A stretch of DNA of 357 nt, taken from assembly GCF_003334335.1 (NCBI RefSeq), contig NZ_QOWQ01000206.1; one strand, written 5' to 3'. Shown one piece after another: positions 287 to 357 of this stretch. The stretch is from Escherichia coli. GTDB lineage: Bacteria; Pseudomonadota; Gammaproteobacteria; Enterobacterales; Enterobacteriaceae. How positions within the stretch are numbered: the stretch's first letter is position 1; the number at the start of each line of letters is the position of its first letter. The position numbers were made by a program, and so were the translations under genes. Under the pieces are notes generated by a model that saw nothing but the letters and a program-made list of their open reading frames with translations, did no database searches and was not told the DNA's origin.

Positions 287-357
287 GGCCCTTTAGCTCA
301 GTGGTGAGAGCGAGCGACTCATAATCGCCAGGTCGCTGGTTCAAATCCAGCAAGGGC
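287..357 (+). tRNA. tRNA with CAU anticodon, most likely lysidine-type tRNA-Ile2 (reads AUA); tRNA-Met not fully excluded; 3' end truncated by the window
   Basis: Cloverleaf folded by hand. Acceptor 5' strand is 287-293 (GGCCCTT) pairing with 352-357 plus one base beyond the window (AAGGGC-N). U8 and A9 are at 294-295. D-stem is 296-299 (GCTC) with 308-311 (GAGC), enclosing D-loop AGTGGTGA. Anticodon stem is 313-317 with 325-329, enclosing loop CTCATAA (318-324) with anticodon CAT at 320-322, U33 and A37. Variable loop is 330-334. T-stem is 335-339 (GCTGG) with 347-351 (CCAGC), enclosing the canonical T-loop TTCAAAT. C4-G69, C5-G68 and C29-G41 are present, which from memory are the TilS identity elements of E. 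coli tRNA-Ile2. The sequence looks close to, but not identical with, E. coli ileX/ileY as I recall them. The last acceptor base, discriminator and any CCA fall beyond base 357. Confidence 0.88.

Follow-up and report, generated by a model that had tools for sequence, protein, structure and literature searches.

The window analyzed here is the whole stretch of 357 bases of Escherichia coli DNA, and it carries, all on the plus strand, the 3′ end of a DNA methyltransferase gene (1..246), a 40-base spacer (247-286) with a sigma-70 promoter-like site in it (249..277), and most of a tRNA gene with a CAU anticodon (287..357). ARAGORN called a single tRNA, at 287-359, with the anticodon CAT (320..322) at position 34, and the Rfam tRNA model RF00005 matched 287-357 with 63.5 bits (E 1.1e-13; gathering score 29) over model positions 1-69 of 71, the match being cut on its 3′ side solely by the window end. 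The window stops at tRNA position 71 of 76, so that C72, the discriminator A73 and the CCA end lie beyond it; they could be read from an identical genomic copy (L001 6287-6362), which is 76 nt long, ends in C72-A73-C74-C75-A76 and therefore has its CCA encoded in the gene. The tRNA with a CAU anticodon that a preliminary description had read from the letters of the window is thus the one called by ARAGORN, and the lack of a functional acceptor end, which would have refuted that reading, is not seen in the 100% identical genomic copy, in which C72, A73 and the encoded CCA are all present. Rfam also returned sub-threshold matches on the minus strand over the tRNA, to the Plastid-ycf2 5′UTR family (25.5 bits vs a gathering score of 65.7) and to SNORD103 (19.5 bits), which were dismissed as antisense or chance matches; the former probably arises, we presume, from a plastid family that overlaps the antisense of plastid trnI-CAU.

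The upstream neighbor of the tRNA is a 352-aa prophage methyltransferase, a gene separate from the tRNA, of which the window holds the last 81 codons and the TGA stop (244-246), as read from the translation. This part includes an HPCEKP motif and the SAM-binding motif FMGSGST, its C-terminal end reading ...HPCEKP...DFFMGSGST...SQNG*, and in NCBIfam it yielded partial matches to adenine-specific DNA methyltransferase models, all of them under the curated cut-offs. RefSeq labels the gene simply as “DNA-methyltransferase” at 5188-6246 of the identical genomic copy. An equation with the prophage rRNA methyltransferase M.EcoPA8orf6770P was rejected, as the latter is an MT-A70 gene (gp5) from another region (PMC10810198). 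The frame within the window contains one ATA and one AGG codon, at 70-72 and 211-213, and the complete gene uses ATA for 4 of its 15 isoleucine codons.

Four E. coli genomes contain a chromosomal stretch that equals the window over its full length (100% identity), and identity is 95-99% for many further genomes and for many Stx2-converting phages. The surroundings of the tRNA, including the genes beyond the 357 bases, were read from a genomic copy that matches the entire window at 100% (L001). Here the genes for RusA, the Q antiterminator, a 65-aa ORF and the methyltransferase are followed by tRNA-Ile, tRNA-Arg(TCG), tRNA-Arg(TCT), a terminator-like hairpin, a TerB-family gene, DUF3927, a SASA esterase, a holin and a lysozyme, so that the neighborhood is a lambdoid prophage late region. 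Stx2a phages display the same order, and then stx2AB in the place where the prophage matching the window has its TerB-family gene. The two arginine tRNA genes, argN (6372-6448, anticodon TCG) and argO (6462-6538, anticodon TCT), are trailed by a GC-rich hairpin with a T-run (6553-6570), which resembles a terminator for these tRNA genes. In the record of Stx phage 933W, the codon assignments of argN and argO bear question marks.

The promoter-like site, found by a consensus scan, consists of TTGAAG (249-254), a 17-nt spacer and TATTAT (272-277), and ends 9 nt 5′ of the tRNA (6249-6277 in the genomic copy). Its position corresponds to that of the “pT putative tRNA promoter” annotated at 21082-21110 of 933W, directly upstream of ileZ, and its hexamers are kept in four phages with diverged flanks, as TTGAAG, TTGCAG or TTGCTG and as TATTAT or TATCAT. 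In an Stx2a prophage, a primary transcription start has been mapped that apparently drives the tRNAs (PMC7547250). In the prophage matching the window, the site at 249-277 is a putative promoter, and we infer its activity from its sequence and position. A methyltransferase CDS is missing from phage 933W in the interval from Q to ileZ, where at least 87 nt (L131 3414-3500) are still preserved that align with the methyltransferase 3′ end and the spacer, i.e. with window positions 200-286. This remnant is a deletion scar, which places the tRNA cluster at a module junction; tRNA genes have also been suggested to mark the captured stx region (PMC7366253).

We compared the window tRNA with the CAU-anticodon tRNAs of E. 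coli K-12. Its closest relatives are the two tRNA-Ile2 genes, ileY (92.1% identity, 6 differences) and ileX (89.5%, 8 differences), while identity falls to 67.5% with the elongator genes metT and metU, and to 58-60% with the initiators metV and metY. The changes that lead from ileY to the window tRNA are U to G at position 20a, AG to GA at 26-27, UU to CA at 43-44, and G to A at 59; ileX differs at the same six positions and, in addition, at the 6:67 pair. The preliminary description had favored tRNA-Ile2, had given differences from ileX in the D-loop and at positions 26-27 and 43-44, and had listed the pairs C4-G69, C5-G68 and C29-G41 together with an A27-C43 mismatch; all of these are borne out by the K-12 alignment and by the sequence itself, which adds position 59 to the differences. 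Features shared with the host tRNAs are the anticodon loop C32-U33-C34-A35-U36-A37-A38, the pairs 28-31:39-42, C4-G69, C5-G68, U12-A23, the T stem, A73 and the encoded CCA. On the other side stand G20a, G26, A27, C43, A44 and A59, with A·C in place of G·U at 27:43 and G/A in place of A/U at 26:44. Furthermore, ileX and ileY stand alone on the chromosome, whereas the window tRNA is borne by a prophage and clustered with two tRNA-Arg genes.

Assignment to tRNA-Ile2 is further supported by the identity elements. The pairs C4-G69 and C5-G68 are treated as major identity elements for E. coli TilS in two papers, both of which cite Ikeuchi 2005 (PMC11947777, PMC12514573), and the definition of this element can also be found in PMC1635315; both pairs are present in the window, C4 and C5 at 290..291 being opposite G69 (355) and G68 (354), respectively. 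C34, the first base of the anticodon, is the presumed lysidine site. Outside the anticodon, the identity set for IleRS reportedly comprises A73, C29-G41 and U12-A23, as described by Nureki et al. in 1994; C29-G41 (315 and 327) and U12-A23 are found in the window, and A73 in the 100% identical copy. Initiator tRNA-fMet is characterized by an unpaired 1:72, three consecutive G-C pairs at 29-31:39-41, and A11-U24. The window tRNA has instead G1-C72, C11-G24, and a lower anticodon stem of C29-G41, G30-C40 and A31-U39 with two G-C pairs only, and the A11-T24 combination is known as an fMet discriminator (PMC1635315). Neither does it resemble elongator tRNA-Met, which in E. coli has U4-A69 and A5-U68 where the window tRNA has C4-G69 and C5-G68, and which, judging by metT, has only A31-U39 in common with its anticodon stem. 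RefSeq labels the gene as tRNA-Ile in every genome copy listed. The NCBI annotation pipeline employs tRNAscan-SE for its tRNA isotype labels.

The complete tRNA, with 71 of its 76 nt in the window, agrees at every base (100% identity) with the ileZ gene of Stx phage 933W (NC_000924.1 21120-21195), and also with that of Stx2a phages. Other properties in common with 933W are the promoter-like element upstream and the location after Q within the late region, as well as argN (TCG) and argO (TCT) downstream, which were seen in the identical genomic copy. Differences from 933W are that the prophage matching the window lacks stx, with the TerB-family and DUF3927 genes in that position, and that it has a complete methyltransferase gene, in contrast to the 3′ remnant in 933W. 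We therefore consider it very likely that the feature is ileZ, a tRNA-Ile2 (CAU) gene of the ileZ-argN-argO cluster of lambdoid prophages, located between Q and the lysis genes, with a role in AUA supply that we infer from its sequence and surroundings. As it resides in a lambdoid prophage, the gene is horizontally acquired, which the preliminary description had thought possible; what the latter took for a diverged copy is, however, the known ileZ gene of 933W, with 100% identity, which it had missed.

This tRNA is both widespread and highly conserved. Of the 5,426 complete E. coli genomes, 3,057 possess it, in up to 12 copies each. An identity of 99% or more over the 76 nt was seen for 2,776 of the 3,068 E. 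coli records with a match, and for the copies in 278 phage records. The tRNAs of 933W and of an Stx2c phage show no change, in spite of flanks with just 84-95% identity. The number of tRNA-Ile(CAT) genes in O157:H7, nine, was the highest among the genomes analyzed by Silva et al. (PMC1635315). In phage phiP27, ileZ (L128 1783-1858) has a C13 to A substitution that breaks the C13-G22 pair of the D-stem and is otherwise identical; this phage also lacks argN. The ileZ-argN-argO cluster is said to have been described together with the 933W genome by Plunkett et al. (J Bacteriol, 1999), and an “ileX” tRNA gene beside stx2 was reportedly noted by Schmidt et al. (FEMS Microbiol Lett, 1997).

At the top of the anticodon stem, A27 (313) is opposite C43 (329), a combination that is not Watson-Crick, and next to it G26 (312) faces A44 (330). 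The host tRNAs have A26, G27·U43 and U44 at these positions in the alignment, i.e. their 27:43 is itself a G·U wobble and not a Watson-Crick pair, and ileZ has altered both sides and is still without such a pair. We searched IMG/VR with a pattern in which positions 6, 20a, 26, 27, 43, 44, 59 and 67 were left free, with seven reference loci added, the counts being lower bounds. The scan yielded at least 124 matches, at least 115 of which have the phage form at 26, 27, 43 and 44, the other 9 being of the host ileX/ileY type. None of the 115 phage-type copies listed from IMG/VR has a compensated 27:43, be it G-C, A-U or G·U.

Species-representative genomes were scanned for an ileZ-type anticodon arm with 27 and 43 free, which gave at least 120 loci, and 114 matches were scored. 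Among the matches listed, the eight that have C4-G69 and C5-G68 all lack a Watson-Crick pair at 27:43 (seven A·C, and one C·U in Hamiltonella), and all 106 with other acceptor stems, which are CAU tRNAs of unassigned isotype, are Watson-Crick at 27:43 (0/106 non-Watson-Crick). The association of 27:43 with acceptor type among these matches is significant by Fisher test at p = 1.8e-12, a value that ignores phylogeny. The A·C set is made up of E. albertii, where the tRNA equals ileZ, Lelliottia, Serratia quinivorans, two Methylococcus genomes, a gammaproteobacterial MAG and an actinobacterial MAG; in the acceptor and T stems of the A·C relatives, there are compensatory changes relative to ileZ. 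The copy from Lelliottia nimipressuralis (L227 9437-9513) is an intermediate form, 77 nt long, that combines features of host ileY with those of phage ileZ. It has the phage G26 A27 / C43 A44, a host-like U20a and G59, and an extra U in the D-loop. It is surrounded by genes for a lambda-family holin, a muramidase, Rha and Doc/Phd, which places it in a prophage, in a lambdoid late region.

The CAU tRNA of Methylococcus capsulatus (L138 8887-8963) is directly downstream of rpoD, and shares with ileZ the G26 A27 / C43 A44 bases, an identical anticodon arm, C4-G69 and C5-G68. It is distinguished by its acceptor stem (GGGCCCU), T stem (GUAGG/CCUAC) and 9-nt D-loop, and by its location outside any prophage. 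The E. coli gene order is rpoD-mug-ileX, and the position after rpoD thus matches the ileX neighborhood. For this reason, the Methylococcus gene is apparently a chromosomal tRNA-Ile2 with a housekeeping role that corresponds to ileX in E. coli. The non-canonical anticodon stem noted in the preliminary description is thus real in that A27·C43 is there, but it is no sign of an aberrant tRNA, and no peculiarity of phages either, since the mismatch is common to a chromosomal tRNA-Ile2. Rather, A27·C43 is a natural variant of the non-Watson-Crick 27:43 found in the tRNA-Ile2 type, and it would not be expected to disable the tRNA. Base changes in this stem are reported to impair TilS of E. coli (PMC11947777), and A27·C43 could therefore affect the efficiency of modification. 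One might go further and imagine that 27:43 is deliberately kept non-Watson-Crick throughout the tRNA-Ile2 clade as a determinant of shape or flexibility, acting as a positive element for TilS or a negative one for MetRS; this we regard as rather unlikely. If it were true, the change from G·U to A·C in ileZ would preserve a wobble-like geometry and would not represent random drift. The anticodon-stem mutagenesis reported by Ikeuchi et al. in 2005 may already cover this point.

Two other views of the gene have to be weighed against its reading as an intact tRNA-Ile2. It may be thought of as an elongator tRNA-Met that adds AUG decoding capacity, and indeed the ARAGORN output bears the label tRNA-Met, as do the annotations in many GenBank phage records, and the Stx-region tRNAs were called “methionine, arginine and arginine” in a comparative paper (PMC7366253). 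Such labels, however, derive from the anticodon alone, and the low identity to metT/metU as opposed to 92% with ileY, the C4-G69/C5-G68 pairs in place of the U4-A69/A5-U68 of E. coli tRNA-Met, and the tRNA-Ile and ileZ names given by RefSeq and by the curated 933W record all make an elongator exceedingly improbable. What the phage records and that paper call tRNA-Met is a tRNA-Ile2 gene, mislabeled on the strength of its anticodon. There is one biochemical point on the side of methionine, in that unmodified CAU tRNA-Ile2 can reportedly be methionylated in vitro (Muramatsu et al., 1988).

The gene could also be a decaying, non-functional copy of the host tRNA-Ile2, in which A27·C43 weakens the anticodon stem and leads to misfolding or degradation. 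The mismatch does sit at the top of that stem, and for unmodified ileZ the nearest-neighbor model in RNAfold favors, by 3.8 kcal/mol, a rod-like structure without a cloverleaf (-33.5 vs -29.7 kcal/mol) in which 27-33 are paired to 45-51, while ileX and ileY retain the anticodon stem with a pairing probability near 0.91. The rod-like fold was nevertheless rejected as evidence and given no weight, because with this model K-12 metT, the chromosomal Methylococcus tRNA and several other relatives fail to fold into a cloverleaf as well. Decay is also hard to reconcile with a 76-nt sequence kept at 99% identity or more across most of the matching E. coli records and in the phage records while its flanks diverge, with the lack of any change at 27 or 43 in the phage-type copies listed from IMG/VR, with the intact acceptor end, discriminator and CCA, and with the fact that these four bases are shared by the chromosomal tRNA beside rpoD in Methylococcus and by relatives whose stems have changed in a compensatory manner. 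Taken with these points, a decaying copy is highly improbable.

If ileZ acts as a tRNA-Ile2, the most likely course of events, which is the one assumed ever since its first description, may be outlined. The gene would be transcribed from its own small promoter (249-277); once the prophage is induced, Q-antiterminated transcription from the late promoter would read through it as well. The precursor would be processed by host enzymes, with the CCA end already encoded in the gene. Host TilS would then recognize C4-G69 and C5-G68, along with the anticodon loop and lower stem, in which ileZ does not differ from the host tRNA, and would convert C34 to lysidine, which would shift charging from MetRS to IleRS. 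The tRNA would thereby read the rare AUA codon, and AUA decoding capacity would rise for AUA-rich phage cargo such as stx2A. Expression of ileZ, lysidine at its C34 and its charging with isoleucine are presumed on these grounds, and no direct demonstration of lysidine or isoleucine charging of ileZ was found in the literature searchable here.

Codon counts are consistent with this course of events to a different degree in different prophages. Of the 20 isoleucine codons in the stx2A gene (L002 4630-5589), 15 are ATA, which amounts to 47 per 1000 codons, as compared with 4.9 per 1000 for E. coli overall (PMC12514573). The stx2A gene also contains six AGA and two AGG codons; stx2B contains none of ATA, AGA or AGG. 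In the stx-less prophage matching the window, ATA usage in the 12-kb neighborhood (16 genes) is 6.8 per 1000 codons, barely over the host average, so that the benefit from codon supply may be small there, and the cluster may just travel with the late-region module. Where stx is present, the counts support a supply role.

It could be argued that the main role of ileZ is other than codon supply, namely that, in lytic growth, it makes up for host tRNA that is lost when anticodon nucleases or other defenses attack tRNA, or that it serves as a sequence for recombination or as a module boundary. With ATA use near the host average in the prophage matching the window, demand alone gives no obvious reason for retention, and the location of the cluster at a module junction, where 933W has lost the methyltransferase CDS and kept its 3′ end, fits the boundary version, as does the view of tRNA genes as marks of the captured stx region (PMC7366253). 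Against the replacement version, ileZ does not differ from the host tRNA in its anticodon loop or in the four lower pairs of the stem, and would thus gain no protection against a nuclease that reads this loop; our search for defense-related evidence found none. Moreover, all three tRNAs of the cluster match rare E. coli codons, and stx2A is extremely rich in ATA. We thus hold a main role outside codon supply to be quite unlikely, and AUA supply remains the preferred reading of ileZ.

As ileZ is already known and named, the window contains no new gene: ileZ has been annotated since publication of the 933W genome, and is present in over half of complete E. coli genomes, so there is little discovery value in its detection here. 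The assignment of isotype is nevertheless of practical consequence, as labeling the gene tRNA-Met misstates the codon-supply logic of the stx region, in which stx2A relies on ATA for three quarters of its isoleucine codons.
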